Source: a virus (taxonomy: Duplodnaviria; Caudoviricetes). Taken from it: a stretch of 41,478 nucleotides of DNA. The notes beneath the pieces were generated by a model. It did not search any database. It was not told the origin of the DNA and saw only the letters and a list, made by a program, of their open reading frames with translations. The stretch spans positions 1 through 41,478 of the IMG/VR virus record IMGVR_UViG_3300030376_002734; one strand, 5' to 3'. Positions 26,616-41,478 of this stretch are shown piece by piece. The first letter of the stretch is position 1; each line of letters begins with the position of its first letter. A program made the translations under genes and the position numbers.

Positions 26616-26622
26616 TATTTAC
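26616..26622 (-). promoter_or_regulatory. Late promoter variant GTAAATA
   Basis: Overlaps gp6 stop, 20 nt upstream of gp7 ATG, same geometry as the other sites. Confidence 0.45.
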
Positions 26623-28502
26623 CCTCTTATTTTTTCGCCATTTGTGTAACTAGATTGAATATTGAATCTAGTACCAGATGTATTAGCACCTGAAGCGATG
26701 GAGTCTTCTCTCATGTAGAAATTGCTATTAGCAACAGAGAATTGTAAATACAACTCTTTTCTTGCAAGAACATCGTTAGATTCAGGTATTGCCTGTACTT
26801 CAACAATGTTATTTGGTTTAACAGTACTGGTTATGTTTGCAGTATTGATAACTACCTCACCTTTCTTATAATCAACAGTTCCAAATGAACTGGATAGAAC
26901 AGTTGCTGTATTATCAGCAGCAAGAGAGAACAAGAATAAATTGCCCTTAGTTGTTCCAGCAATACGTATATCCGAGAAATAAACAGTCTCAGATATGCCA
27001 CTTACAGTAAATCCAGTAGATTTGATGTTATAAGCATCTGCTCCTATATGAAACTCATTATCAAAACATAATTCATATTGTGTCCATTGGTTGATCTGTG
27101 CTGGTAAATCTCTTCTAATTCTTACCGTAGTAATATTTGAAGTAATTGTAGTACTTACATTGTCAATAAGTGATAGAACCTTACTGTATTTGAATCTGCC
27201 ACCAAACTTATTCAATTCGGGACCAGATGCAAATGCTGCTAATGAACTAACAACATCTGTCTTCATATTCTCTGGATCTCCTACAAAGTTTGCATTGTAG
27301 TAAACCCAACTATCAACTTCAACATATAAGAACTTCAAGTCAACCATAGTAGGTAAAATACCTGCTACAGAATAGTTCTTTAGAGAACTAAGTATCTGCT
27401 TCTTAGTGAATTCAGATAAGAATGATCCGTTCTTTGGTTTAGCAGCAATGTAAACCTGACCATACTTAGGAGGAGTAAGTTCCTCACCACCAAAAGCACT
27501 TATAGATTCTATATTTGGATATACAGAAGGTACAATTGCTTCATAATCACTTGCAGTAACTGCCCTATGTTGTGTTGAGTATAACCTAGGAGCATAGTAC
27601 CTAACACTCTGCAAATTCTCTATATCATCCCCATTTTCAGATGGATAACTAGGAATTATAGTAGCACTGAAATCAGTTACTAATGCATCATCCTGATCTA
27701 ACAAAGTACCAGTAAATGTTAGACGAGATACCCCGTTACCATCCTTACCATTGGTCTTGATGTATGAAACATCAATTACATTACCGTTAGATAATTTATT
27801 TCCAAATATACCATCGCCAAATAATACCTCATACTTCTCATCACTTGTTTCTTGAATCAAGTAAATCTTAGAGGTTGAGGTAATTCCGAGAATATTATCA
27901 ACTAATGAATATTCTTCAATTGTGGTACTTGATGAATTTTCCCTTACGTTTACACGTATAGTTGAGGTATCAATACCATCGTTAGGTAAAATGAACCTCT
28001 GATTCGGTTGCGAGTCATCGATAACAAATGCATTGGACAGATATTGTCCTTGATATACCTTGATGATACCTTCAGCTTCACCATTCAGTGCAGTTCCAGT
28101 AACTTGTTCGGGTATAGAAAAGACATAATTTACACTATCAACATTACCATTGCCGATAATGCCAGGTTCAAACTTGAGAGTAGTAGCTGCTGATGGTAGA
28201 TCTGATATGTTATAACTTACGTCCGTTACTGCTGCTCTTCTTGATCTAGGGACATATCCTATATTTCTTGCTAATGATACTACATTCTCTCTCAAAGTCG
28301 CACTATCAATAAATGTCTCATTGACAACCATATTGGTGTTATAGGCTGTACTGTATGAGTTATATGCTAATAGATTGATTAGTATAGAAAGGTTTGATCC
28401 CTCAAAGTCCATATCAGTGAACTTAGAGTTCTCTCTGACATAATCCTTGATGGAACTTTTTATATCCTCAAAATTTAGGTTTGTAAACTGTTGAAGTGCC
28501 AT
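26619..28502 (-). CDS. gp6: Baseplate wedge subunit gp6
   Basis: LNFEDIKSSIKDY, DFEGSNLSIL..LLAYN, FIDSATLRENVVSLARNIGYVPRS, FGDGIFG, RAVTASDYE, GGEELTPPKYGQVYI. Confidence 0.95.
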   Translation of the reverse strand: MALQQFTNLNFEDIKSSIKDYVRENSKFTDMDFEGSNLSILINLLAYNSYSTAYNTNMVVNETFIDSATLRENVVSLARNIGYVPRSRRAAVTDVSYNISDLPSAATTLKFEPGIIGNGNVDSVNYVFSIPEQVTGTALNGEAEGIIKVYQGQYLSNAFVIDDSQPNQRFILPNDGIDTSTIRVNVRENSSSTTIEEYSLVDNILGITSTSKIYLIQETSDEKYEVLFGDGIFGNKLSNGNVIDVSYIKTNGKDGNGVSRLTFTGTLLDQDDALVTDFSATIIPSYPSENGDDIENLQSVRYYAPRLYSTQHRAVTASDYEAIVPSVYPNIESISAFGGEELTPPKYGQVYIAAKPKNGSFLSEFTKKQILSSLKNYSVAGILPTMVDLKFLYVEVDSWVYYNANFVGDPENMKTDVVSSLAAFASGPELNKFGGRFKYSKVLSLIDNVSTTITSNITTVRIRRDLPAQINQWTQYELCFDNEFHIGADAYNIKSTGFTVSGISETVYFSDIRIAGTTKGNLFLFSLAADNTATVLSSSFGTVDYKKGEVVINTANITSTVKPNNIVEVQAIPESNDVLARKELYLQFSVANSNFYMREDSIASGANTSGTRFNIQSSYTNGEKIRG

Positions 28503-28906
28503 TATAATCTTGTTGGTTCGAGTATAAAGTTGACGGTTTGTGTTGGTGACGATAAACCAACAATATCGTATTCTATGCTTATATCTAAAGCATTATCATC
28601 AGGAGTTGCCTGAACACCTATTCCTGTCAATCTGACTCTGGGTTCATGGTTAGTGATAGTTAGTTCTATCTCTGTCCTTATAGGATCAATAAAATCCGAG
28701 GTTGAAAGTTCAAATAAAGAACCCTCAATCCTAGTACCGATCAACCTATTAAAGAATATTTCACCTACTTGTATGCGTACTAAATTTTGCACAGCACGTT
28801 TGATAGCGTCCTCATTTTTCAAGACAAGTATATCATTAGTAACGGGATGTCTCTTGAAGGATAATGAAATATCCTTAAATCCCCTTGAGAATGTTTGTGC
28901 TGGCAC
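28502..28906 (-). CDS. gp25: Baseplate wedge subunit gp25
   Basis: FKDISLSF.RHPVTND, NEDAIKRAVQNL, GEIFF, LFE, NHEPRV; directly upstream of gp6. Confidence 0.95.
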   Translation of the reverse strand: MPAQTFSRGFKDISLSFKRHPVTNDILVLKNEDAIKRAVQNLVRIQVGEIFFNRLIGTRIEGSLFELSTSDFIDPIRTEIELTITNHEPRVRLTGIGVQATPDDNALDISIEYDIVGLSSPTQTVNFILEPTRL

Positions 28907-28926
28907 CAGTTTCCAGAATCTTGGTA

Positions 28927-28940
28927 TATTTATTATTTAT
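28927..28940 (-). promoter_or_regulatory. Tandem late promoters ATAAATA-ATAAATA
   Basis: Two abutting copies (28927-28933, 28934-28940) upstream of gp25. Confidence 0.7.
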
Positions 28941-28948
28941 TGCGGAAT

Positions 28949-29134
28949 TTAATAGTCATCTTCATGACCAAGGTACTTAACCTCTACTATGTCTGGATGG
29001 GGGTAACCACATGAATAAAATTCGTCTGCTAGATCTTGGGTAACGTCCAACATCTCGTCTTCATCTATTCCTTCTCGTATGATTACTCCCTCAACGTAGA
29101 TATTATACAACTCATGCATCGTTGAGATAGTCAT
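28949..29134 (-). CDS. Small acidic hypothetical protein
   Basis: 61 aa (start may be the second Met); YNIY...QDLADEFY..GYP.P motif recalled from small genes upstream of gp25 in cyanophages. Confidence 0.7.
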   Translation of the reverse strand: MTISTMHELYNIYVEGVIIREGIDEDEMLDVTQDLADEFYSCGYPHPDIVEVKYLGHEDDY

Positions 29135-29148
29135 TTTTGACTATGTAT

Positions 29149-29175
29149 AAAAAAAGGATCCCTTTAGAGGATCCT
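29149..29175 (-). terminator. Intrinsic terminator closing the enzyme island
   Basis: Minus-strand RNA AGGAUCCU-CUAAA-GGGAUCCU followed by a U run; the upstream stop codon lies in the loop. Confidence 0.8.
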
Positions 29176-29916
29176 CATCTTTTCATGTCCTACCCTTGCT
29201 TTAGGGTCACACCATATTTCATAACCTGCTTTTATTGCATCTAAACAGAAAGAAACATCCTCACCACACATATCTTGAACTTCACCTGAATCAAATACCT
29301 GCATTTGAGGAGCGAACCAAGGATAAGTCATCTCTTTATTTTCAAAGACTCCTTTCTTGATAAGCAACCAACCAAATCCAGCATAATCAACTGTGAATGG
29401 TTTGCGACGTTTTGTAATGCCATCTAACATCTCATGGTTCATCACACCACCATTCTCTTTGAAATCACCTTCTTCTAACCAATGTGCTACTGATGATGTA
29501 TTACCATCTTCAGTTACATACCATCCAGAAGCAATATCCTTATCCATCAAAACTAGACGGTAGAACTGTTCAATACCGAAAACGATATCACTATCGATCC
29601 ATAACTGATAATCATACTCTAACTTACCGTCCCAAGGTAATTGATCTGGTCCACGTAAAACATTTGCACCAAGACACTTACATCGGGCAAAGTTCACCAT
29701 TGAACTGTAATCTTGAGATATTTGTATACTTGCTCCCTGCTGCACCAACTCAAAACAGAGTGATACGAAATTCTTTAGGTATGTGTATGAAACTCCTCTA
29801 CCTGGTAGACAAAAGACAACGCTTTTGCCTTTGATCATCTCTCTTCCTTTTTCTAATGAGAAATCATCTTTTTCTGCAGTTGGTGATGTTGATACCACCT
29901 TAAATCCTTTTGCCAT
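29164..29916 (-). CDS. GT-A fold glycosyltransferase-like protein
   Basis: LWIDSDIVF (DxD), GFGWLLIKKGVFE, GEDVSFC, VGHEK; ATG at 29916 preferred over TTG 29922. Confidence 0.7.
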   Translation of the reverse strand: MAKGFKVVSTSPTAEKDDFSLEKGREMIKGKSVVFCLPGRGVSYTYLKNFVSLCFELVQQGASIQISQDYSSMVNFARCKCLGANVLRGPDQLPWDGKLEYDYQLWIDSDIVFGIEQFYRLVLMDKDIASGWYVTEDGNTSSVAHWLEEGDFKENGGVMNHEMLDGITKRRKPFTVDYAGFGWLLIKKGVFENKEMTYPWFAPQMQVFDSGEVQDMCGEDVSFCLDAIKAGYEIWCDPKARVGHEKMRIL

Positions 29917-29937
29917 AACCAAATGTCATTCATATAC

Positions 29938-29967
29938 ATTATAACAGATTATATAGGTAGTCTGCAA
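29938..29967 (-). promoter_or_regulatory. Sigma70-like promoter
   Basis: TTGCAG-N18-TATAAT with extended -10 TG, about 22 nt upstream of ATG 29916. Confidence 0.5.
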
Positions 29968-30538
29968 CCCTCTTATGCCCAATTTGAGATAAGTGTCCTC
30001 TAGGTCTCCAATTTTCATTTTTACCCCAAAAACCACGTTTTCCTTTTCCTATTATTTTCTTGATACGATGTAATTTAAAATCAGTCATATCATAGTAAAA
30101 TGAATCACCTTCTTTCCATCCTCTTGGTTCTACACTCCAATGTATTACTTTTATATCTTTCATCCTACAATATGAATCAACAAGTAATATATTCTTCCAC
30201 ATGTTCTCATCATCTAATCTAGCATTTTGAAACTTTGTATAAAATGTTACTGCTAGTGGTTTAGTTACTGCCATACCATCCTTGTATACTTGAGGTATGA
30301 TACCTTCTACTTTACCTGATTTGTAAATATACTCTCTTCTATTCTTAAATGTCCATTGCACTATCAATTGGTCAACATCATGATCCTGTAGATGCATCAA
30401 TGTTCTTCTGGCAATATTATCATTACTAGCAGCAGATTTAGCAATATTTTCTGCTCCTAGTATTTCAGCATAAGTTTGTTCTCCTTCCTCTAGTTCATCA
30501 CCCCAAGTGAAGGAACACCCATTACATAACAGTGACAT
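29939..30538 (-). CDS. SGNH/GDSL-like protein, paralog 1
   Basis: NGCSFTWG block I, NIAKSAASND, IVQWT, C-terminal GHLSQIGH; start placed at MSLLCNG (30538). Confidence 0.65.
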   Translation of the reverse strand: MSLLCNGCSFTWGDELEEGEQTYAEILGAENIAKSAASNDNIARRTLMHLQDHDVDQLIVQWTFKNRREYIYKSGKVEGIIPQVYKDGMAVTKPLAVTFYTKFQNARLDDENMWKNILLVDSYCRMKDIKVIHWSVEPRGWKEGDSFYYDMTDFKLHRIKKIIGKGKRGFWGKNENWRPRGHLSQIGHKRVADYLYNLL

Positions 30539-31907
30539 TGTACTTGTTTTCAAATAATCTAGCATCTTCGATGTTATTTACCATCGGTTTTCCACGAACA
30601 TTCAAAGATGTGTTTAGTAGGACAGGACAACCTGTACGTTCATACCATGCCTCTAGTATGGGTCTCAGGATGCTTTCAGACGTTTCTGGGACTGTTTGTA
30701 CCCTAGCAGAGTTATCAACGTGTAGACAAGCAGGTATATCGTCCTGACGCTTGCATTGATAAGTATAAGACATATACCTAGAGTGGTCAGGCATATCAAA
30801 GTAATCGTGGCAATGCTCCTCAAGAATAGCAGGAGCAAATGGTCGGAATTTCTGTCTTTGCTTGATATCGTTAACGAGGTCTTTGGTTTGAATTTCTCTT
30901 GGATCCGCAAGTAGACTTCTGTTACCAAGAGCCCTAGGACCAAACTCTGCACGACCATTTGCGATACCAACGATCTTATTTTTGAGTAGGCACGTAACCA
31001 CCTCCTTCGGATCGACCTTACGCTTGATGTTGTACCCCAAGTAGGGTGTGAATTGAACTTTTCCACCATAAGATAATAATGCTGCCCCTAAAGCACCTCC
31101 AGCGTCGCCTGGGTTAGGCATAATCCAAAGATTGCACCTTTCCCTAAGTTTTGTATTTACAACGCAGTTGAGAGCAACTCCACCCCCATAACAGATATTA
31201 TCGCTATATTTCTTTGCTTTGTCAAATATTATCTCTAATTCCTGTTGTAGTATCCTTTCTGCACTCTTAGCAACGTCATATACATTATATGGGATTTCTT
31301 CTTTACGAATACCCTTATGATTGTTTCTATACAATAAACGCTCAACCCGATTCATATAAACAGGATTTCCGAACGCTGCCATCCCCATAAAGATATATTC
31401 TTCATCTAGAGGTTTTAGACCTGCCCATTTGGTCAATGCACTGTACCATAGACCAATAGAGTTAGGATACTTCCTAGACCAGACTTTTTTGTACTCTGCC
31501 TTCCCTTCAACCATTTTTGCAGTCCATATTGAACTACAATCCCATTCTCCGATAGAATCAACAACTACACACGCTGCTTCTTCAAATGAAGACGTTTGAA
31601 ACGCTGCAGCAGCATGAGACTTGTGATGTTCGTGATATTCGGTTGCTTCTAACGAATAGTATCTCTCATTCTTTACAGTTTCAAATTGACCAGCATATAA
31701 CTGCCTACTCTTCTTCCAGAAGGGCATTTCGTAAAATGCCACTTTATCGTCTTTTTGATAAGTCTTTGCGGCAATGATTGCCGCTAAATCCAAAGTCTTA
31801 TCGTGTTTCTTCTTTGAGTATCTTTCAGAATGCGTTGCAAATGAAATTTTGCCATTATTGACTACGGCAATTGCAGCATCGTGAAATCCTTCAGAAAATC
31901 CAATCAT
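30522..31907 (-). CDS. Carbamoyltransferase, NodU/CmcH/TobZ family
   Basis: GFHDAAIA, ERYS, HHKSHAAAAF, DSIGE, GGGVALNC, PNPGDAG, GRAEFGPRALGNRSLLADP, RPFAP, ARVQTV, LNTSLN. Confidence 0.95.
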   Translation of the reverse strand: MIGFSEGFHDAAIAVVNNGKISFATHSERYSKKKHDKTLDLAAIIAAKTYQKDDKVAFYEMPFWKKSRQLYAGQFETVKNERYYSLEATEYHEHHKSHAAAAFQTSSFEEAACVVVDSIGEWDCSSIWTAKMVEGKAEYKKVWSRKYPNSIGLWYSALTKWAGLKPLDEEYIFMGMAAFGNPVYMNRVERLLYRNNHKGIRKEEIPYNVYDVAKSAERILQQELEIIFDKAKKYSDNICYGGGVALNCVVNTKLRERCNLWIMPNPGDAGGALGAALLSYGGKVQFTPYLGYNIKRKVDPKEVVTCLLKNKIVGIANGRAEFGPRALGNRSLLADPREIQTKDLVNDIKQRQKFRPFAPAILEEHCHDYFDMPDHSRYMSYTYQCKRQDDIPACLHVDNSARVQTVPETSESILRPILEAWYERTGCPVLLNTSLNVRGKPMVNNIEDARLFENKYNVTVM

Positions 31908-31993
31908 TCTTCGTCTTCGTAGATATACGGATCTTCACGTTTTAATTTCCAGAGTTTATACTCTCCGTAGATCCAATTCCAGAGTTTTTTCAT
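31904..31993 (-). CDS. 29-aa peptide coupled to the carbamoyltransferase
   Basis: Not in track. MKKLWNWIYGEYKLWKLKREDPYIYEDEE; ATGA overlap with the carbamoyltransferase start; late promoter 20 nt upstream. Confidence 0.75.
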   Translation of the reverse strand: MKKLWNWIYGEYKLWKLKREDPYIYEDEE

Positions 31994-32012
31994 ATTTTTG
32001 ATTAATGCAATG

Positions 32013-32020
32013 TATTTATG
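32013..32020 (-). promoter_or_regulatory. Late promoter CATAAATA
   Basis: Intergenic, upstream of the peptide-carbamoyltransferase unit. Confidence 0.65.
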
Positions 32021-32021
32021 A

Positions 32022-32735
32022 CTAATTTTTGAACATTTTAGCAGTCTTTATGATAAACATCAAGTCTAACGCAATTCTCATGTGCCCCAATTCATTTGGA
32101 TGCTTATATTTTGCTTTTGCGTATCTTTTGTCATTATTGAGTTGTAAAGTGTATTCTAATGGCGTAGAATCGTCGCAAGTGAGTAAAGCAAGTGGAACAT
32201 TGTTTATTTTGCAATGATTCTTGATTGTAGTGTATGCAATTTGTTCATATGCCCTTCCGTACTCTTCTTGGTAGATACTTTTGTAATATTGAGTCCAAAA
32301 CTGCTTATTGATTGGTCGTACACCTTTTCTAAGTTCTTCTCCTATCTTCACATCTCCAAAGTCACCATTTTCCCAATCAAAACTCTCATCAGTCGCACTA
32401 TGGATTGTTATATTAGTCCAACCCTTTTTCTTTCCAACCATTATCAAACCTGGTTTATATTCAAACTCATTATTTTTCAATTTTCGTATTCTATGCGGAT
32501 CATAATACTCCAATCTCTCAGGAAAGGTCAATTGAATGATAGCAAGATCATATTTGGTTATATCATTCTCTACAAGTAGATTACGAACGATTCTGGCATT
32601 ACTAGCACCACCTTGAGCAACATTGCAAACTTCTGCCCCTATTTTATTTCCAAGAAGCGTACTATATCTAGTTTTTTCAGGATCTTTCAATTCTCCACCA
32701 TAAGTGTAAGAACACCCATCAACGTAAATTTTCAT
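32022..32735 (-). CDS. SGNH/GDSL-like protein, paralog 2
   Basis: MKIYVDGCSYTYG, NVAQGGASN, IIQLT, HPNELGH; ATG 32735 overlaps the upstream stop (ATGA). Confidence 0.65.
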   Translation of the reverse strand: MKIYVDGCSYTYGGELKDPEKTRYSTLLGNKIGAEVCNVAQGGASNARIVRNLLVENDITKYDLAIIQLTFPERLEYYDPHRIRKLKNNEFEYKPGLIMVGKKKGWTNITIHSATDESFDWENGDFGDVKIGEELRKGVRPINKQFWTQYYKSIYQEEYGRAYEQIAYTTIKNHCKINNVPLALLTCDDSTPLEYTLQLNNDKRYAKAKYKHPNELGHMRIALDLMFIIKTAKMFKN

Positions 32736-33697
32736 CCCCACGGTTTTGTATTGAATTCATTATACCACTCATCGTAAATCCATGCTAGATTTTGTCTACC
32801 ATAAGATATATCTTCCTCGGAAAGGTCTTGCATATCACTGATCCATTGATCTTTGAGTAATTCATGCCTAGGTGCCTTAGTTCCCTGTTCTGGATAGTAA
32901 CAATTGTGATATAAGTCATTTATTGGATAATCTAGAAATTCTGACAATTCTTTTGTCTTACCACTCCACAATTCTTCCATTACGATAGGTAAAGTCGGAA
33001 ATACACTAGACCATTTCTTATAGATGTCTACGTAAGAGTATGCGGAGTCTAAAACTGATTTCCAGTAAGAAATACTGTCAGGATACTTCCTATTGATCAT
33101 TCTCCACTTGAATCTATCTTTTATGTCTCTATTTTCCCAATCAAAACCCATTTCTGATTTATTTTGCGATCTGAGTCTATAATGAGAAGACATTTCAGAA
33201 TAATGCCTTCTTACTGGATCTCTATAAATTATTAGCACCTTTACATTGAAATGTTGCTTCAATACAGGTGAAATGCCAACTAAGAAGTGATATGGTAAAG
33301 TAGCAAGTTCATTTGAGAAATCCATGACTGCTTTATAGTCATGTTTGACATTTTCCCAAAGAATCTTGTAATAATTGACATAAGTGTCAATATTTGGATC
33401 AGATCTAAAGTAATCTCTTATTTGTTCTTTAGTTTCTTGTAGATACTTACTATATTTGCCCCAACTCCTATTTCTTCTTGGTTCTTTCCTATGAGAGAGC
33501 AATTCATCAATTTTTTGCCCCCTGTACTTCTTCCAATACGCATATCCATCCATTTCAGACAATTGCTTTAGCAATCTGTCTTCTTTTACGAGTCCACAGT
33601 GTCCGAACTGATTTGTTACCTGTAAACTGTACCATAACGGAGTAGTTGCAGACCAACCAGTCCCTGACCCAAGAATTAGGGTAGGTTTATCATTCAT
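32732..33697 (-). CDS. Sulfotransferase-fold protein
   Basis: N-terminal loop GSGTGWSATTPL, KE, DFS, 3'-phosphate motif YRDPVRRHYS. Confidence 0.7.
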   Translation of the reverse strand: MNDKPTLILGSGTGWSATTPLWYSLQVTNQFGHCGLVKEDRLLKQLSEMDGYAYWKKYRGQKIDELLSHRKEPRRNRSWGKYSKYLQETKEQIRDYFRSDPNIDTYVNYYKILWENVKHDYKAVMDFSNELATLPYHFLVGISPVLKQHFNVKVLIIYRDPVRRHYSEMSSHYRLRSQNKSEMGFDWENRDIKDRFKWRMINRKYPDSISYWKSVLDSAYSYVDIYKKWSSVFPTLPIVMEELWSGKTKELSEFLDYPINDLYHNCYYPEQGTKAPRHELLKDQWISDMQDLSEEDISYGRQNLAWIYDEWYNEFNTKPWG

Positions 33698-33712
33698 GGT
33701 CTATATATCAGT

Positions 33713-34639
33713 ATGAAACCAACATTATTATTGAATCCTGGTACGGGATGGGCTGCTACAACACCATTCTACTATACTTTAGCGTTAGACAACAAATATA
33801 CTCACGCAGGGCATCTAAAAGAGAACAGTTATCTGTATACACTAAAAAATTCAGAATACGAACCTTATTTTTTCAAAAAATGGGAAAAAAATCAGGATCA
33901 GCATCTAGTAAATGAAAATACCCTAGATCACTTCTCTGATGAGTACATGAATGACTTTATTAATGGTGAAAGGAGTATAGACAAATATATTGACTACTAT
34001 AAAAGGCATTTTGAAGAAATTGGTAGACCTAGTGTTGCAGACTTCAGTAATTACAACATATCAATGAAAGAAGATGATCTAAAATCAATCGCAGACAAAT
34101 TAAAAGAACATTTCAACATAAAAGTGACTATGCAGTTCCGAGAACCTGTAAGAAGGTTCTTTTCAGAGACTGGATCTGTTATATCATTCAATAAGAACCG
34201 AGGATCATTGTATAACTTCAAACATGGACTAGATTTGCGGATGACAATGCTCATAAATGCAAAAGATCACACTGAATTGTTTTTATATCGCATTAAAAAG
34301 CAAGATTTCTCAAATCTTTGCTTTTATATGAAAAATTACAAGAAATTTGCAAATGTTTTTGGTAAGGAAAACGTATTACCCATCATAATGGAGAAATTTT
34401 GGGATCCAGATCAATTTAAAGAGCAAACTGAGCGATTATCTGATTTCTTGAACTTCAAAATTACCAAAATTCATGAAAATGTGTATTTTCCTGATAGAGG
34501 TAACGAAGCACCCCAACTTGCAGGTCTACCAGACCAATGGAAGTCCGATATTGACTCATTAACCGACGAAGTATATGATAAATCCGCTAAAATGATGAAA
34601 AACTTTATAAAATCTTGGGAAAATCTATCACTTTTGTAA
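33713..34639 (+). CDS. Sulfotransferase-fold protein, divergent paralog
   Basis: NPGTGWAATTPF, HAGHLKE, ADFSN, FREPVRRFFS, IIMEKFW, HENVYFP..G..AP...L.DQW.SD, all shared with 32732-33697. Confidence 0.75.
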   Translation: MKPTLLLNPGTGWAATTPFYYTLALDNKYTHAGHLKENSYLYTLKNSEYEPYFFKKWEKNQDQHLVNENTLDHFSDEYMNDFINGERSIDKYIDYYKRHFEEIGRPSVADFSNYNISMKEDDLKSIADKLKEHFNIKVTMQFREPVRRFFSETGSVISFNKNRGSLYNFKHGLDLRMTMLINAKDHTELFLYRIKKQDFSNLCFYMKNYKKFANVFGKENVLPIIMEKFWDPDQFKEQTERLSDFLNFKITKIHENVYFPDRGNEAPQLAGLPDQWKSDIDSLTDEVYDKSAKMMKNFIKSWENLSLL

Positions 34640-35207
34640 GATGATCCGCAATAAGTTGATGTCCGAGAGGGGATGGGTGACCATCTAACCAATATTTGCC
34701 TCCATTCTTAGGATGACCAAGTAAATCTTGGTGTTGGAGCATGTCAGACCATGATGTTAGGTCTTCATATACGCATTTCTCCAACTCATCACCTCTTTTA
34801 TTAGCAAATCTCCAGAAGTAATGTGGAATACCACGCTTTTTTAGGTATGATTCCATCACAAAAACGTTTTTCCAGAAGTTTGTATAGTGTAATTGGTTAG
34901 AACTGATAAATTTGTAGTAATAACGTGGCACAATATTCGTAGGACTCACACTTCCTGGTTGATATGACCTCCATTTTCCTTTTTCCCAATGAGAAAAGCG
35001 TGTTACAAGCGTAAATTGTACGATTACAAAGTTACAAGTGTTATTTTCTAACCATTCTATCGTTTCTTTGACAATCAAATCGTTACATTTACCTGATTGT
35101 GCGAGATTTACATGCTCATGTCCAAGCAAATATGAGTATCTTTGCGTTTCTGGGTGTTCTAATTCCATACCATAGGTATGACTACACCCATTGAAGAATA
35201 TTTTCAC
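34605..35207 (-). CDS. SGNH/GDSL-like protein, paralog 3
   Basis: KIFFNGCSHTYG, NLAQSGKCN, IVQFT, DGHPSPLGH; GTGA-coupled to the upstream amidinotransferase. Confidence 0.65.
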   Translation of the reverse strand: MKIFFNGCSHTYGMELEHPETQRYSYLLGHEHVNLAQSGKCNDLIVKETIEWLENNTCNFVIVQFTLVTRFSHWEKGKWRSYQPGSVSPTNIVPRYYYKFISSNQLHYTNFWKNVFVMESYLKKRGIPHYFWRFANKRGDELEKCVYEDLTSWSDMLQHQDLLGHPKNGGKYWLDGHPSPLGHQLIADHLTKVIDFPKIL

Positions 35208-36547
35208 AAATATAAAGTGTAATTAGGGTCATCTGCACCCCTATCAACAACCATTTCACCTTGACGTTCAGGAAAATAGTCTTTCTGTTCTCCTTCTCTA
35301 ACTATATCTGACGTAATACAGTGTAATCCACCGTCCCAAAAATACCTATGACGGAAGTTTATAACATGTGGTGTGATATTATGACGCTCAAATGCTTCAA
35401 ATACCTTCTCATTATATCCATTTACGATCACATTGTTCTCATCAAGTACTAACATGTTGGTATCAAAGACACTTTCCTCTACATAAGTGACCCAATGATC
35501 CATCCAACTATCAATATAGTCAATCAAATCATCATTATCCTCCTCACCTGCTACCCACCAACGTCCACGATTCTTATTTTTCATCTTAATAAACCCATCT
35601 ATCTTATCCCATGACTCACCAGGTAGAGTTACAACATCCCAATCAGGGAAAGTCTTCTCGTAATTCTGAATATCTCTCAACGTAACAATCAAACCAGGTT
35701 TGACTGCACTAAAACAACCATCAGTATGACCTCCTACATGCAAGAAATGCTTACGATGGTCAGGAAATAACCTATCCATCTTTGCTCTAAAGGATACTTC
35801 GTTGATCTTATTACAGATATTACCAAAACCAAAGTACAAATCCTTACCAACACGAGTCATAATACCACAGTTGATGTATTCATCATACACAACGTCTATA
35901 TTATTATCTTCACACCACTTCTGGATACTTTGAAAACAGTAAAAGTCATTGTTTATCGGGAACTTATTATTCGATCCGATAGTCAACATCTCTGCTTGTA
36001 GTATTTTCTCCTTGATCTTCTTCGTATCTACTGCACTCAGTACATATCTCACTCTCTTCATATCTTTATTTGCCCTGACTCTCATCAAAGATCCACCTGT
36101 TGATAAGCGACTTGGGTCTAATGCTTCTTCTACCATTTGTGCAATCGCACGATAACGAGGAGTATTCACCTTATGCCAAGGTTCAGACATCATTCCACTA
36201 AAGATCTTCTCTACATCAATGTTCTGACCAAACTTATCAGAAGGCATAAAGTATTGACTACCTACAGCAGCAGTATGATCTCTTGGACACATTGGTGGAT
36301 TACGAGGTTTATCTCCAGCTCTCCAATGGTCTTCTATGTTATCTGATATATCTGTTCTCACTACAGTCGCACCAAACTCTTCTATCTTACTAATCAGTTT
36401 CTGGAAGTCCTCTTCTGTCTCAATGGCAATCTTCTCCATTGCATTTCGGACTTTACTATTCTTAATTCTGCTATAGAATTCTGGTGGATATGATCTACCT
36501 ACGGCACATACCTTTAGTGGATCCCAATGTTGTTGTACAGTTTTCAT
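35204..36547 (-). CDS. Amidinotransferase (glycine/inosamine-phosphate amidinotransferase family), paralog A
   Basis: WDPLKVCAVG, ETEED, MCPRD, GHTDG, EESVFDTNML, RHRYFWDGGLHCITSD. Confidence 0.85.
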   Translation of the reverse strand: MKTVQQHWDPLKVCAVGRSYPPEFYSRIKNSKVRNAMEKIAIETEEDFQKLISKIEEFGATVVRTDISDNIEDHWRAGDKPRNPPMCPRDHTAAVGSQYFMPSDKFGQNIDVEKIFSGMMSEPWHKVNTPRYRAIAQMVEEALDPSRLSTGGSLMRVRANKDMKRVRYVLSAVDTKKIKEKILQAEMLTIGSNNKFPINNDFYCFQSIQKWCEDNNIDVVYDEYINCGIMTRVGKDLYFGFGNICNKINEVSFRAKMDRLFPDHRKHFLHVGGHTDGCFSAVKPGLIVTLRDIQNYEKTFPDWDVVTLPGESWDKIDGFIKMKNKNRGRWWVAGEEDNDDLIDYIDSWMDHWVTYVEESVFDTNMLVLDENNVIVNGYNEKVFEAFERHNITPHVINFRHRYFWDGGLHCITSDIVREGEQKDYFPERQGEMVVDRGADDPNYTLYL

Positions 36548-37908
36548 AAGTGATAATCTTGTCGTTCACCTTCACGGGAGATATCGGAAGTTATACAGTG
36601 TAAACCACCATCCCAGAAGTATCTATGTCGAAAGTTTACGATATGTGGAGTGATACCATATCGTTCAAAGGCATCAAACACTTCCTTATTATAACCATTG
36701 ACTATGACATTCTTTTTATCTATGACTAGCATGTTGACATCAAATACAGTTTCTTCCACATAAGTCACCCAATGGTTCAACCAACTATCAACAAAATCAA
36801 CAAGTTCCTGATTATCTTCTTCTCCTTTTATCCACCAACGTCCACGATTCTTTTGCTTTGCTTCTCGAAACCCTGGCAGTTTCTTCCATGATTCATCTTT
36901 GAGATATACAACTTCCCAGTCAGGGTAATACTTCTCATAGAAACTCATATCCTTGAGAGCAATGATAAGACCTGGCAGTACAGGATGCATACCACCGTCA
37001 CCATGACCAGGTGTATCTACTGCATGGACACGATAGTCAGGAAATAATTTTGCCCACTTATCCTTATATACGTTTTCATTCAATTTATTGACAAGGTTTA
37101 CATAGTTGAAAAATATATCTTTTCCAATTCTCCAAGACATTGCACCATTAATATATGAGTCATATACAATGGGTACATCATTCTCTTTACACCACTTCTC
37201 AATAGAAGCAAACTGATAGAACTTCTTATTACTTGGGAACTTATTGATACTTCCAATTGTATTGGTTTCTGCTGCAAAGATTAGTTTCTTTACCTCTTCT
37301 GCATCGATACCTGCTAAGTAACGAGTAAAACATTTTGGTTTTTGTTTTTTCGCTTCTTGTTGATTATCCCAAAATTCACGACTATCCCACCATTCTTTCC
37401 ATAGTCCTTTCTTACTTCTCAACTTCATCAGTGCAACAGTAGATGAGATAGGTCTACCTGGCAACATCAAGTCAGTCAAATACTTTGCTAATATCCTTTC
37501 TCTACTATTATCTCTTTGAAATAAGTTCTTATCTAATAACCCATTGAAAATCTTCTCTACATCGATATTGTCACCATACTTAGGAGAAGGCATAAAGAAT
37601 CTATTGCCAATCATAGTTGTGAAATCTCTTGGACAGAGAGGGGGAGCAGACCATGCTCCTTCATTCTCATCAATAAGTCCTATATTATGATCTTCTGGAT
37701 TCTTTGATACATCAGTACGAAGCACCTTGACATCAAACTCTTCTAACTTCGATATAAGCGTTTGAAAGTCTTCTTCTGTTTCAATTGCAATTCTTTCTAA
37801 TGCTCCTCTGACCTTAGGATTCTCAACACATGAATAAAACTCAGGTGGAAAACTCCGACCTACTGCACATACTTTGAGTTTATCCCAATGCTGGTGTACT
37901 GTATGCAT
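36544..37908 (-). CDS. Amidinotransferase, paralog B
   Basis: WDKLKVCAVG, ETEED, LCPRD, GHGDG, EETVFDVNML, RHRYFWDGGLHCITSD. Confidence 0.85.
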   Translation of the reverse strand: MHTVHQHWDKLKVCAVGRSFPPEFYSCVENPKVRGALERIAIETEEDFQTLISKLEEFDVKVLRTDVSKNPEDHNIGLIDENEGAWSAPPLCPRDFTTMIGNRFFMPSPKYGDNIDVEKIFNGLLDKNLFQRDNSRERILAKYLTDLMLPGRPISSTVALMKLRSKKGLWKEWWDSREFWDNQQEAKKQKPKCFTRYLAGIDAEEVKKLIFAAETNTIGSINKFPSNKKFYQFASIEKWCKENDVPIVYDSYINGAMSWRIGKDIFFNYVNLVNKLNENVYKDKWAKLFPDYRVHAVDTPGHGDGGMHPVLPGLIIALKDMSFYEKYYPDWEVVYLKDESWKKLPGFREAKQKNRGRWWIKGEEDNQELVDFVDSWLNHWVTYVEETVFDVNMLVIDKKNVIVNGYNKEVFDAFERYGITPHIVNFRHRYFWDGGLHCITSDISREGERQDYHL

Positions 37909-38171
37909 TATGAAAAATGATAAGATTTATACCACTCATACCATTTATGGACTTGCTTCTTTGCTTCCACATGTAGAGGGTCTTTCGCCCATTGTATCAC
38001 ATCTTCCTTCTCTTTCCATTTACTTATTGTTATCTCCACACTATCAACAACTTCTGACTCTAATGCTATAAAACCTGAAAGACCTTTTGCAGTATCATAA
38101 AGAGTATCACTATATTCCTCATACTCTTCATTCAGGTCTTTGACCTTACCAATAAACATCACTTGATACAT
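37908..38171 (-). CDS. Antibiotic biosynthesis monooxygenase (ABM)-like protein
   Basis: MYQVMF...GFIALES...ITISKW...WAKDPLHVEAK...WYEWY; ATG 38171 preferred over GTG 38213. Confidence 0.75.
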   Translation of the reverse strand: MYQVMFIGKVKDLNEEYEEYSDTLYDTAKGLSGFIALESEVVDSVEITISKWKEKEDVIQWAKDPLHVEAKKQVHKWYEWYKSYHFS

Positions 38172-38216
38172 GCCTTTAATATAATATAGAAGCTGCCTCT
38201 TGGACAGTAACACTGT

Positions 38217-38223
38217 TATTTAG
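38217..38223 (-). promoter_or_regulatory. Late promoter CTAAATA heading the ABM-amidinotransferase unit
   Basis: Same variant as at 258 and 1013; intergenic. Confidence 0.55.
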
Positions 38224-38325
38224 AAGTCCTCATATTTCACTTGAAGATTCTTATATTTTTCTTACGATATGGTAATAAGAAAAATTATCTCACATGGGTT
38301 TACCTTATACTACCATAACTCACAG

Positions 38326-38354
38326 TTGACAAATTGGTGAGGGTCTGTTATGAT
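38326..38354 (+). promoter_or_regulatory. Sigma70 promoter for the tRNA cluster
   Basis: TTGACA-N17-TATGAT with extended -10 TG, 13 nt upstream of tRNA-Asp. Confidence 0.85.
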
Positions 38355-38367
38355 ATGTACATCACTT

Positions 38368-38441
38368 GGGATAGTAGTTCAGTGGTTTAGAACGCTGCCC
38401 TGTCACGGCAGAGGTCGTGGGTTCAAATCCCATCTGTCCCG
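38368..38441 (+). tRNA. tRNA-Asp(GTC)
   Basis: Acceptor GGGATAG/CTGTCCC, D stem GTTC/GAAC, anticodon arm CTGCC-CTGTCAC-GGCAG, T arm GTGGG-TTCAAAT-CCCAT; no encoded CCA. Confidence 0.95.
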
Positions 38442-38447
38442 TTTATT

Positions 38448-38519
38448 GCCATCATAGCACAGTGGTAGTGCAGGGCTTTTGTAAAGCCAAGGTCGTCCGT
38501 TCAAATCGGTCTGATGGCA
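38448..38519 (+). tRNA. tRNA-Thr(TGT)
   Basis: Acceptor GCCATCA/TGATGGC, D stem GCAC/GTGC, anticodon arm GGGCT-TTTGTAA-AGCCA, T arm GTCCG-TTCAAAT-CGGTC; two stem mismatches. Confidence 0.9.
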
Positions 38520-38520
38520 T

Positions 38521-38594
38521 CGGGATTTAGTTCAGTTTGGTAGAATGCTCGCTTTGGGAGCGAGATGTCATAGGTTCAAATCCTATAATCCCGA
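38521..38594 (+). tRNA. tRNA-Pro(TGG)
   Basis: Acceptor CGGGATT/AATCCCG, anticodon arm CTCGC-TTTGGGA-GCGAG, T arm ATAGG-TTCAAAT-CCTAT. Confidence 0.95.
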
Positions 38595-39158
38595 CTAAGG
38601 AATATCAGGTCTTTCCCACATGGGTCTCTTCCTCCTCCATGTCTGGATTCGTTTTTGGATATCCATCTTTTGATAAGAGGTAAGATCAATTTGATATACA
38701 CTTCCACCATACTCTTTACGACTATCATGTTCTCCTTGATACACTCGAATAAAGTTAGTGGGAGAGTAATCAACGAAACTATACTCACTATCACGTAATA
38801 CCACATCATCATAGATATAATCCATTCTCTTTAGATTACAACCCTTACCTTTGATATACTGACAAGTGTACTGTAGTACATTATCTTTATACTCAAAAGT
38901 AAACTCAGGTACTTTGACCTTTACAAACTTTTCCTCTTGCAGTCTCTCTAAGTTTTCCACATCCCTGTGGAAAATCTCTTTATTATCATACTCTATAGTC
39001 TTCGTAAGGTAAAAAGATGTAGACGTTTTCCACAGGGGAGTCTGCTTTTCTAACTCTTCATCTCTCCTAGGGTGCCATAGCACATATTTACCACAACCGT
39101 CTTTACGACTATAATATGAACCTGTCCAAGTCAATGGTTTTATCGGAAATGTATACAT
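38595..39158 (-). CDS. Protein-kinase-like fold protein (small-molecule or sugar kinase candidate)
   Basis: YLTK strand lysine, VKVPE, CQYIKG hinge, catalytic-loop-like DYSPTNFI (DxxxxN), IDLTSY at the DFG-equivalent position. Confidence 0.55.
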   Translation of the reverse strand: MYTFPIKPLTWTGSYYSRKDGCGKYVLWHPRRDEELEKQTPLWKTSTSFYLTKTIEYDNKEIFHRDVENLERLQEEKFVKVKVPEFTFEYKDNVLQYTCQYIKGKGCNLKRMDYIYDDVVLRDSEYSFVDYSPTNFIRVYQGEHDSRKEYGGSVYQIDLTSYQKMDIQKRIQTWRRKRPMWERPDIP

Positions 39159-40042
39159 TATAAAAACCTCAATAATTTCACTTCTTTATCTAGCTCCTCA
39201 GTTCTTACCAATTTATAATACCATCCCTTACGTACAATGAATGTATAAGGATGTACAAGTTTTCCACAGGTTTCAAATGTACTCCATTTATAATCAATGT
39301 CATCCTTTTCTAGGTATCCTTTATCAATACATCTATTATATCTTTCTACTATCCGAGAGTCAAGAGAGGGTTGAGGGATTACGGGGATATAATCAAACTG
39401 TAATATATTAGGTAGAGAGGCACTCGAAAGATATTGACTCTTCAGTGCATGATAGGATTTCTTATCGTCCCACTTGACGTAGTGAATGTAATCTCGACCT
39501 CTGCAATGGTAGTCAATAACATTGTTGAAGTAGTATGCATCGTTTTCGATGTACTCATCTAACTGTTCGTATGTCCAATTCCATTCATTGATTGTCTTGT
39601 AGATATGTGCATTGAGTCTCTCATGAGGATCTCGAATGAATGCAACTACTGTCTGGTCGGTATATAATCTCTCCCAATCTACGTTGTGAACAGAGTAACA
39701 TGAAGGTATATCCTCTATTGGACACTTGTTCACCAAACTCTGATTACTCATACGCCCTGAGTGTAGTGCTACTTGACTTCCCTTGGGATCTATGATATAA
39801 TGTTTAAGTACATCGATGGGTTTCTCAAATGTTACACCTGCACACTCAGGTATATGAATATGTAATAACTTGAATATCTCGTCAGTCTGAAAGGATGGTA
39901 TGAAGTCGTGGGCGGCAATTGCCTGTGGAAAACTAACGTATTCTCCCTCTAGGAGGTTATACTTATATACTGGAGGGCACTCTGTGGAAAACTCTGACTT
40001 CCCTTGCAGGGACTTTAGGTCTCGGTCAAATCTTTTATACAT
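39158..40042 (-). CDS. Sulfotransferase family 2-like protein
   Basis: LHIHIPECAGVTF (cf. HIPKxAGTS) and AFIRDPHERL; likely start MYKRFD at 40042. Confidence 0.6.
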   Translation of the reverse strand: MYKRFDRDLKSLQGKSEFSTECPPVYKYNLLEGEYVSFPQAIAAHDFIPSFQTDEIFKLLHIHIPECAGVTFEKPIDVLKHYIIDPKGSQVALHSGRMSNQSLVNKCPIEDIPSCYSVHNVDWERLYTDQTVVAFIRDPHERLNAHIYKTINEWNWTYEQLDEYIENDAYYFNNVIDYHCRGRDYIHYVKWDDKKSYHALKSQYLSSASLPNILQFDYIPVIPQPSLDSRIVERYNRCIDKGYLEKDDIDYKWSTFETCGKLVHPYTFIVRKGWYYKLVRTEELDKEVKLLRFL

Positions 40043-40204
40043 GATAAGTTTTCCACAGGGGTTGTGGAGAAAGTAGGTTAGAAAAATTCTAAGGGGGTTT
40101 TTTATATAGGGAAAAAAATTTTGATTTGTCGTTAGGTCGCTCGTTGGTAAACGTTTGTAGGTTAGAAAGACGGTACTTTTTAATATACGGGCACCGCCCC
40201 CATA

Positions 40205-40213
40205 ATTATAACA
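40205..40213 (-). promoter_or_regulatory. Extended -10 element TGTTATAAT
   Basis: Exact TGn-TATAAT with poor -35; lies between GCCCC/GGGGC arms; points toward ORF 40042. Confidence 0.45.
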
Positions 40214-40281
40214 TAAGGGGCACAATATCACTGCCTAATTCACCCTTACTGCCAGTACACAGTTGTTAACACATAACACAC

Positions 40282-40315
40282 AAAAATGCCCCCAGTGAGT
40301 AACACTGAAGGCATT
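40282..40315 (-). terminator. Intrinsic terminator for the early small-gene block
   Basis: Minus-strand RNA AAUGCCUUCAGUG-UUACU-CACUGGGGGCAUU then UUU; 13-bp stem whose two G-U pairs work only on the minus strand. Confidence 0.8.
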
Positions 40316-40342
40316 GCAATCTCTGTGAGTTTGTGTTATAAT
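40314..40342 (+). promoter_or_regulatory. Sigma70-like promoter with no downstream plus-strand gene
   Basis: TTGCAA-N17-TATAAT with extended -10 TG. Confidence 0.6.
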
Positions 40343-40369
40343 AGGACTGTAAGATTGTCCTATAATTGT

Positions 40370-40465
40370 TTACCAATTAGAACCGTAATACTTGTACAAA
40401 ATGTGTCTAACTGTCCTTGAAGTTTGTGCTGCTTCGAGTTCACTTAGTGCTGCAAGATAAGGCAT
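40370..40465 (-). CDS. 31-aa hypothetical protein
   Basis: MPYLAALSELEAAQTSRTVRHILYKYYGSNW; A/C-rich leader; followed by the terminator. Confidence 0.45.
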   Translation of the reverse strand: MPYLAALSELEAAQTSRTVRHILYKYYGSNW

Positions 40466-40605
40466 GAGTTGTTGTTAATAAAGGACGAGGGATTTGACTG
40501 TCTTTGTTGTTAATAACGATAGGCGAAGTCATTCCGAGTTGTTTACACTAACTGTTGGAGGATTGTGGACGAGTTGTTGTTAGTTTTCTGATGATATTAT
40601 GCTCG
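40466..40605. repeat. Four degenerate units at 35-bp period, core gagTTGTTgtta
   Basis: 40466 GAGTTGTTGTTAATAA, 40501 tctTTGTTGTTAATAA, 40536 GAGTTGTTtac, 40571 GAGTTGTTGTTA. Confidence 0.6.
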
Positions 40606-40698
40606 CTTAGGCAACAATTACCACAACGATTTCTACGAGGTTTATAACAATTAGTAGAACGATTTCCACAGGGTTGTTGAAAACTAATAAACATTTTA

Positions 40699-40854
40699 TT
40701 AGACATTTATAACATTTTGCGTATGAACGATTACACCTAGTAAAATAGCATCTTCTCTATGTAATTTGAACAGTTCATTGTAAACAATAGATGGCATACT
40801 TTTATCAGTGTTTGTAATACTTTTGGCAACACGATTAGGGTTACTATGTATCAT
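40699..40854 (-). CDS. 51-aa hypothetical protein
   Basis: MIHSNPNRVAKSITNTDKSMPSIVYNELFKLHREDAILLGVIVHTQNVINV; ATGA overlap with the upstream ORF. Confidence 0.45.
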   Translation of the reverse strand: MIHSNPNRVAKSITNTDKSMPSIVYNELFKLHREDAILLGVIVHTQNVINV

Positions 40855-41039
40855 TTGCGTCTCCTACTGAAAGTATCAATAATTGCTGCGGATTCACTAG
40901 ATAAAGTATCAACAATAGGATGACTATCTATCTGAGAGAAAATATCATTTTCATCTGTGTAATTGTCTGAGTTGTAGTCAAAATCTGCTTGGTAATCCTC
41001 ATCTGATTGTTGATAAGAATTGAATGTAGAATAGGTCAT
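40851..41039 (-). CDS. Small acidic hypothetical (early-type) protein
   Basis: 62 aa, D/S/Y rich with basic C-terminus; part of a tightly packed run. Confidence 0.6.
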   Translation of the reverse strand: MTYSTFNSYQQSDEDYQADFDYNSDNYTDENDIFSQIDSHPIVDTLSSESAAIIDTFSRRRK

Positions 41040-41044
41040 GGAAA

Positions 41045-41299
41045 CTAATAACGAGAGGGGATAGATTGGTAAGGGTTGTTTACATCTTTATTGATGCAAT
41101 CAGTTGCTAATTGTTTGAACAAATTCATATCATATTTCTTTGCAATTGTTTCCTCTAACTCTTCAGGTGATAAGTATAACAAACTGTGCAGCATATTAGA
41201 TGTTATAAACTTCACTAAATCTTCTCTTCTCATGTTGTTAGTAAGTGCCTCACAATATGCTGTAATTGTATCACTTAGTTGTTGTGCAGTTAGTTTCAT
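41045..41299 (-). CDS. Hypothetical (early-type) protein
   Basis: 84 aa, helical; ATGA-coupled to the upstream ORF. Confidence 0.65.
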   Translation of the reverse strand: MKLTAQQLSDTITAYCEALTNNMRREDLVKFITSNMLHSLLYLSPEELEETIAKKYDMNLFKQLATDCINKDVNNPYQSIPSRY

Positions 41300-41439
41300 T
41301 TAGTGGCGTATTTTGAATGATAAATGTTTACTAATTGTGGTAATCCTTTTGTATTATCAACAACAATGTAAGTACCATTACACACCCTATCTTCTAACTC
41401 TTCTGCAAATTGTTCGAGGTTTATAACACTTTTCTTCAT
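41296..41439 (-). CDS. Small hypothetical protein
   Basis: MKKSVINLEQFAEELEDRVCNGTYIVVDNTKGLPQLVNIYHSKYATK; frame stays open to the window edge, so the start may be further upstream. Confidence 0.5.
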   Translation of the reverse strand: MKKSVINLEQFAEELEDRVCNGTYIVVDNTKGLPQLVNIYHSKYATK

Positions 41440-41478
41440 AGTTTGCCCCATGAATGATAATACTTTGAACATGTAATC

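Follow-up and report, generated by a model that had tools for sequence, protein, structure and literature searches.

Why would a T4-like phage of cyanobacteria carry a dense cluster of DnaA boxes of the host type, most of them inside genes? We addressed this question in a stretch of viral DNA of 41,478 nt (IMGVR_UViG_3300030376_002734), called the window in its whole length. Judged from its sequence, the window is a fragment of a T4-like cyanophage genome. A box means here an exact TTTTCCACA 9-mer on either strand. The initial annotation had named this motif as the described cyanobacterial DnaA box. This agreed with PMC4674748, in which the 9-mer is given as the cyanobacterial box and domain IV of DnaA is reported to bind it in vitro. 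On the replication start of T4-like cyanophages, a review (PMC2984593) gives only a predicted single origin, for Syn9. Our results showed that the array is real and conserved and that it lies beside a conserved non-coding element, termed the hub. Several readings of its mechanism are weighed below.

Exact boxes and the proteins they cross

Seven boxes were found, at 38953 (+), 38966 (−), 39026 (+), 39260 (+), 39924 (−), 39983 (−) and 40049 (+). All of them lay between 38953 and 40057, with no copy elsewhere in the 41,478 bases, and the recount agreed with the seven copies in about 1.1 kb on both strands that had been claimed. The expected number per window was 0.70, and none of 100 shuffles reached seven. 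The probability that seven uniformly placed copies fall within 1,105 bp was 2.4e-9, and TTTTCCACA was the densest 9-mer of the window when any 1.2-kb stretch was compared. One-mismatch copies were not enriched across the window (20 against 16.9 expected).

Six of the seven boxes were coding, three in the open reading frame (ORF) ORF187 (38595..39158, −) and three in ORF294 (39158..40042, −), whose start was set from its homologs of 294-307 amino acids. In ORF187, the inverted pair 38953+/38966− (38953..38974, 4-bp spacer) encoded IFHRDVEN, with IFHR in frame 1 and DVEN in frame 2, and the box at 39026..39034 (+) encoded LWKT in frame 1. The boxes of ORF294 at 39260..39268 (+), 39924..39932 (−) and 39983..39991 (−) encoded CGKL (frame 0), SFPQ (frame 2) and FSTE (frame 0). 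The different peptides and frames reported earlier for the six copies were thereby verified. The seventh box was located 7 bp upstream of the ORF294 ATG. It formed an inverted pair with a one-mismatch copy at 40063 (−) (40049..40071, 5-bp spacer) between the start codon and the hub. Three inverted pairs had been claimed in total. The pair 38953/38966 was exact in both arms, but 40063, 40662 and 40675 each had one mismatch.

A codon-shuffled null for the 9-mer, as the initial annotation had proposed, was then used to compare the boxes with what the proteins allow. The proteins were kept fixed, and codons were redrawn 20,000 times from the usage of 14 neighbouring genes. More than four boxes in the two ORFs were obtained in 0 of the 20,000 draws. 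The two proteins alone allowed 0.72 boxes on average in 1.4 kb, and the same null on 10 kb of other genes gave 0.85. This meant that the peptides of ORF187 and ORF294 were about six-fold enriched for box-compatible sequence. The six box codon choices taken jointly had a probability of 1e-7. The two proteins have no need of the boxes: the box peptides were variable in a 60-member ORF187 alignment, boxes were at other codons in the ORF187 homolog locus L199, four different cargo genes in the lineage of the window were box-bearing, and a variant lacking both ORFs kept an exact pair. The four genes included an o200-like gene and one read from its sequence as aldolase-like.

In the structural-region genes at 257-28502 (28 kb), no TTTTCCACA with at most one mismatch was found against 5.5 expected, and 1 of 200 synonymous shuffles was as low. 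Avoidance of boxes away from the hub is possible for these genes of the window. General genome-wide avoidance was rejected, since the exact counts of isolates outside clusters were similar to or above those of the reversed control.

The hub and its boxes across phages

The hub is a non-coding element of about 140 bp at 40100..40237 (−), and it matched unannotated DNA of other cyanophages. It contained A/T tracts, the core TTTGTAGGTTAG (40154-40165 on the plus strand), a GC-rich stretch and a sigma70-like pair. The A/T tracts and the TGTAGGTTAG core were the conserved features. The pair, TAGGCA-16-TATGTT, faced the late genes and was read by eye. The initial annotation had described the cluster but overlooked both the hub and the turnover of boxes. 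A second copy of the hub core, GTAGGTTAG, was observed at 40073-40081, adjoining the 40063 box, and a 12-base deletion at 40068 in run X1 overlapped it. Rfam gave only transfer RNAs (tRNAs) on 37900-41478 and no family for the hub, and RNAalifold gave no shared structure on either strand for 58 hub copies. A structured RNA at the hub was ruled out by these two results.

A profile was built from the matches to 40100-40237 and was searched in 17 cyanophage isolates that were taken without regard to boxes (16 from match lists, one by accession), with three T4-like phages of other hosts as controls. Of the 17 cyanomyovirus isolates, 16 had the hub upstream of gp25, and none of the three controls had it. 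In Syn9 and S-PM2, whose whole genomes were searched, it occurred once; in Syn9 (DQ149023.2) it lies at about 53.5 kb. Small box clusters were located 2-8 kb before gp25 in Syn9, ACG-2014d, S-PM2, S-SM1, S-RIM2, S-CAM1 and S-ShM2, and P-RSM4 had a single box there. No box was found upstream of gp25 in the nine other isolates, and no cluster in the controls. S-SZBM1 also had a box cluster. Within 2 kb of the hub, the 16 isolates that have it carried 20 boxes, compared with 0.97 expected.

The coupling was also seen in larger sets. A scan of IMG/VR for inverted pairs gave 124 loci of an estimated 310 or so, in a set biased towards boxes in which 44 of the 124 lacked full flanks. Many of them lay directly before the same landmark genes. 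A search with the hub core gave 120 loci, of which 80 had full flanks and 75 were left after five duplicates were dropped. These 75 loci held 100 boxes, compared with 13 for the reversed 9-mer. The boxes were within 2 kb of the hub in 98 of 100 cases, with a peak at 0.5-1 kb on the early side. More than 2 kb to the late side (about 297 kb in total), there were no boxes and six copies of the reversed control. Twenty boxes were inside ORFs of at least 80 amino acids. These counts are not independent events because the loci are related. Among the 28 loci that had 2 kb of DNA on each side, 14 carried at least two boxes. Spacings in the phage arrays were mostly 11-13 and 21-23 bp, or one or two helical turns. 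The position was kept in relatives with different neighbouring genes, a comparison that had been proposed earlier. The boxes are nevertheless optional, being present in about half of the phages, and their number, side and distance vary (from <0.1 to 6 kb from the hub).

Several further observations were made at these loci. On the late side, at 0.9-1.9 kb from the hub, single exact boxes were present in Syn9 (54597, inside the large gene gp94), S-SM1 (50310 and 51196), S-RIM2 (49379) and P-RSM4 (55557). The single-cell virus AG-345-P14 (MH319765.1, L489 7305-8281) had six exact boxes on the early side of its hub, 2.3-3.3 kb away. In S-PM2 (L197), the annotated tRNA-Asn and tRNA-Leu at 19177-19333 overlapped three boxes; this annotation also overlaps a coding sequence and may be offset. 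A 284-kb record (G003, L070) had two gp25 genes and two box arrays, at 29317-29434 and 239066-239129, and probably consists of two joined phage genomes. Many IMG/VR contigs ended near the hub or near box pairs, either at assembly breaks or at real ends. The S-SZBM1 record breaks inside the hub (L167 end / L162 start). We did not count this break as a genome end, the genome being described as circularly permuted (PMC9146016).

A possible role for host DnaA

The match to the cyanobacterial box suggested that host DnaA very probably binds the boxes of the window. A DnaA DNA-binding domain was found in three of three picocyanobacterial-type genomes and in neither Syn9 nor S-PM2, where 'picocyanobacterial-type' was inferred from dnaN, size and GC content. 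Confinement to one conserved element, together with free side, number and frame, points to an action in cis that needs only nearness. We tentatively favour host DnaA as an optional helper that works on the hub in cis, most likely at the first-round replication start of the phage. The boxes, which flank the promoter-like hub at the early/late junction, would dock host DnaA. From a site within about 1 kb, DnaA would make the DNA bend or loosen, or would assist in protein loading; transcription and the phage replisome would do the opening and load the helicase. Boxes could then enter any cargo gene beside the hub, because only nearness would matter. More weakly, we infer that the hub may be an origin, transcription-primed as in T4. 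The single origin predicted for Syn9 is of the theta type (PMC2984593).

Some results weighed against this helper role. The promoter pair of the hub was below the threshold of the sigma70 scan and was not among its 13 matches. Of the 56 loci with 1.3 kb on each side, 32 had no exact box there, and 8 of the 16 isolates with the hub had none within 6 kb of it. The boxes of S-PM2 and S-CAM1 were 5.9 and 3.7 kb from the hub, which is far for a cis helper. The GC skew, named earlier as a way to check for an origin, was monotonic in Syn9 and S-PM2 with the coding strand dominating, and it showed no switch at the array. In the window it turned at about 40 kb, with only 1.5 kb following. Third positions in the ORF294 boxes were unchanged in L200 and L202 (9/9), compared with 11-13% change elsewhere, but chance gives such conservation about one time in three and it was not significant. 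The ORF187 pair was broken in the closest relatives. The initial annotation had argued that selection acts on the DNA. This held insofar as the proteins do not explain the cluster, but purifying selection on single coding boxes was weaker than implied.

Control of transcription is an alternative that we consider unlikely. DnaA flanking the hub would be a regulator or roadblock, tying the hub promoter or late read-through to the DnaA state. The boxes surround the promoter-like hub among further sigma70 matches, and one pair sits 7 bp before the ATG of ORF294. DnaA also controls transcription at boxes other than those of oriC (PMC7198777). Confinement to the hub fits this reading equally well. 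However, the side, orientation (43 against 43 on the early side) and distance of the boxes are free, and most boxes are 0.5-1 kb upstream of the promoter and not on it.

A sink for DnaA is likewise unlikely to be the function of the array. As phage replication multiplied the perfect boxes, they would take DnaA away from the host origin, and host replication would stall. In four of five host dnaN-upstream regions, only imperfect boxes were found in the stretch examined. Four whole picocyanobacterial-type genomes held 17, 16, 11 and 36 exact boxes, and a fifth held 8. Because the host genomes hold so few exact copies, a phage array of seven would be a large share. The phage arrays have no unwinding module, and titration can set initiation in E. 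coli (PMC13674477). However, a sink does not need a single place, yet boxes were absent beyond 2 kb of the hub. Near-matches were scarce in the structural genes of the window (0 against 5.5, 1/200 shuffles), and the coding boxes, with neighbours spaced 60-660 bp, are too loose for a cooperative array. The initial annotation had inferred either recruitment of DnaA or its titration. Recruitment in the form of a host-type origin was not supported, and a datA-like sink is conceivable but does not explain confinement within 2 kb of the hub.

It is improbable that the ligand is a phage protein, with iteron- or operator-like sites whose match to the DnaA box is coincidental. Only two genomes in a sample of 251 from the host phylum had an exact head-to-head pair spaced by 3-6 bp; the sample includes many non-photosynthetic lineages, as judged from dnaN sequences. 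This meant that the commonest picture in phages is not the layout of a host origin, and the exact inverted pair was ruled out as a host-origin signature. On the other hand, nine of nine bases match the phylum-specific box, and the tandem spacing of 11-12 bp is that of host arrays. In addition, 28 box-less loci had no substitute motif near the hub, and no tight TTWTNCACA cluster was found in the three T4-like phages of other hosts.

An injection stop as in T5 is very improbable; in this reading, DnaA at the membrane would hold the incoming genome where its early region ends. T5-like phages have paired DnaA boxes that end the pre-early region, away from origins (10.1101/866236), and the array of the window is likewise at the end of an early region. 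However, fixed genome ends are needed, whereas the relative S-SZBM1 is described as circularly permuted (PMC9146016), and the boxes of cyanophages are optional.

It is hardly credible that the phage has taken over an oriC of the host type that DnaA itself unwinds. A cluster of perfect boxes near A/T tracts would fit such an origin. A DnaA-trio run 3' of a box forms the basal unwinding system (10.1101/2022.08.09.503306), and one rule was applied to phage and host sites alike. No trio run followed box-like sites in the window (0/24) or in 40 phage loci (0/809), whereas all five host dnaN-upstream regions had a box-like site followed by such a run. With no unwinding module and with a free geometry, an origin of the host type is unlikely: hub distances are not fixed, and half of the phages are box-less. 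A scan of genome contigs gave matches mostly in unrelated bacteria. Clusters of seven boxes were observed in two cyanobacterial genomes (L350/L451 1501-1635 and L453 1501-1710), and no dnaN was found among the long ORFs within 1.5 kb of them.

Chance or a by-product of protein sequences has a negligible probability and was already refuted: the two proteins do allow 0.72 boxes, but the resampling, the joint codon choice and the same place in relatives with other genes contradict it.

Lineage, setting and known systems

The lineage of the window differs from its relatives in where the boxes sit. Among 56 loci with 1.3 kb on both sides, late-side boxes outnumbered early-side boxes only in the window (0 early, 7 late) and L202 (1 early, 5 late). 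An early-side array at 40613..40717 consisted of three imperfect repeats spaced 32-33 bp and contained the one-mismatch pair 40662+/40675−. This decayed repeat sits at about −450 to −550, roughly the place of the perfect arrays of relatives. In this lineage, the usual array outside genes is degraded, and the boxes sit in cargo genes.

Ten loci with an ORF187 homolog were recovered. They had 0-3 boxes in the gene, at other codons in L199 and L204-L208. The hub profile matched eight of the ten, adjoining the ORF187 homolog or ORF294; L200 and L203 end at or before the hub. The patch carrying the 38953/38966 pair (38928..38990, −; ORF187 codons ~57-77) is likely recombined. At codons 61-70, its DNA was 100% identical to that of L204-L208, a lineage of about 52% protein identity, in which the other codons showed 33-80% identity per 10 codons. 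The closest relatives, L200-L202, gave 76-80% at codons 61-70. Contigs in two runs matched only 38925-38990 and were divergent beyond. Most simply, 38928-38990 would be a recombined patch. Four of eight runs contained a form in which both ORFs are missing and tRNA-Pro is joined to the hub, with an exact inverted pair kept in between. It was assigned to a relative because its short side was 23 bases. ORF187 and ORF294 are dispensable.

Small ORFs of early type lie on one side of the box cluster, and the late structural module lies on the other. This module starts at 26619..29922 (−) with gp6, gp25 and a conserved cyanomyovirus glycosyltransferase-like gene, gp6 and gp25 being assigned from PHROGs. 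For the gene before gp25, 84 of 104 matching records were Synechococcus phages. The gp25 of the window was 68.7% identical to that of a single-cell virus and <50% to others among the matches listed; by this comparison, no close isolate appears to exist for the phage. The tRNA-Asp, tRNA-Thr and tRNA-Pro genes (38367..38595, +) are antisense to the genes and border the cassette on its late side. Among the neighbouring ORFs scanned in the window, none belonged to a dnaN or dnaA family.

ORF187 and ORF294 look like real cargo genes. Neither had a Pfam or PHROG family above the cut-off, and single-sequence searches of viral contigs with both gave nothing. The ORF187 family has 123 representatives. 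Its predicted model (predicted local distance difference test 88.5) has a minimal protein-kinase-like fold that would be closest to Bud32/Rio. Its best structural match was Bud32 (Z 8.4, root-mean-square deviation 3.2 over 126 residues), and all 50 matches among those listed were kinase-like; Foldseek gave no match at E <= 0.001. ORF294 is possibly sulfotransferase-like, a lead from language-model features only (score 0.93, PF03567 clusters). By pattern match only, sigma70 sites of 10-11/12 were observed inside ORF294 and ORF187 at 39335-39363, 39773-39801 and 39087-39115, two of them antisense. The site at 39773..39801 (+, 11/12) is inside ORF294 and faces the hub, and that at 39363-39335 (−, 11/12) faces ORF187. 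The 13 matches of the scan were in total not above shuffles. The cargo island at 29939-37908, from gp25 to the tRNAs, contained a NodU-like carbamoyltransferase, paralogs of 447 and 454 amino acids (52% identical) and several related ORFs of 200-320 amino acids without a family.

The locus is a natural experiment in which the array was shifted across the hub and into genes. Position is thereby separated from gene content, and a cis signal is seen shaping protein sequence. The hub and its boxes offer an exact single-copy target in cultured Syn9, S-SM1, S-RIM2, S-ShM2 and ACG-2014d, with S-SSM7, P-SSM2 and S-CAM7 as natural box-less controls. If DnaA acts at the hub, independence from the host initiator would not hold for all T4-like phages, and the cell-cycle state of the host could be sensed during infection. 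A broader proposal is more doubtful. About half of T4-like cyanophages would use host DnaA to license first-round replication at the hub, so that infection would be tied to the DnaA-ATP state of the host, whether set by cell cycle or by day and night. Selection for DnaA density near the hub would be sufficiently strong to alter the amino-acid sequence of any cargo gene beside it. A literature search, with most subscription papers beyond its reach, found no paper on DnaA boxes in cyanophages among the titles listed.

The array was compared with known systems. The plasmid origins P1, F and RK2 use accessory host DnaA boxes as helpers and not as the initiator. The phage array would resemble them in having host DnaA boxes beside the element's own origin, if the hub is one. 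Unlike in iteron plasmids, no Rep gene or Rep iterons were identified in the window, only the degenerate 33-bp tandem at 40613-40717. The datA and DARS clusters of E. coli offer an analogy as DnaA-box clusters that are not known to open DNA and include head-to-head pairs, but they are chromosomal and require IHF or Fis sites and a fixed geometry. T4 oriF and oriG are transcription-primed from middle promoters and are not known to use DnaA. The likeness to them would be one of layout: a promoter with A/T-rich DNA behind it, in a phage of the T4 type that has the T4 replisome genes (PMC2984593). Cyanobacterial oriC, as described in PMC4674748, shares the identical 9-mer, and its tandem spacing of 11-12 bp is found in relatives of the window. 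Its TTTTCCACA cluster is mostly beside dnaN, whereas the phage array has no dnaN or dnaA beside it, no DnaA-trio run and six of seven boxes coding. The phage boxes are also more perfect than those of the picocyanobacterial-type origins examined. T5 is similar as a lytic phage with its own replisome, in which close pairs of host-type DnaA boxes end the early region; for its injection-stop boxes (IRD'/IRC'), the function is proposed only (10.1101/866236). According to the same source, T5 has fixed terminal repeats and a two-step injection, and its boxes are non-coding, at fixed 3-bp and 52-bp spacings and kept in all members compared. In contrast, the boxes of cyanophages are optional, loosely placed and partly inside genes. 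The array falls outside the oriC family. Phages that carry host DnaA boxes are already known, and the array is a variant of that kind.

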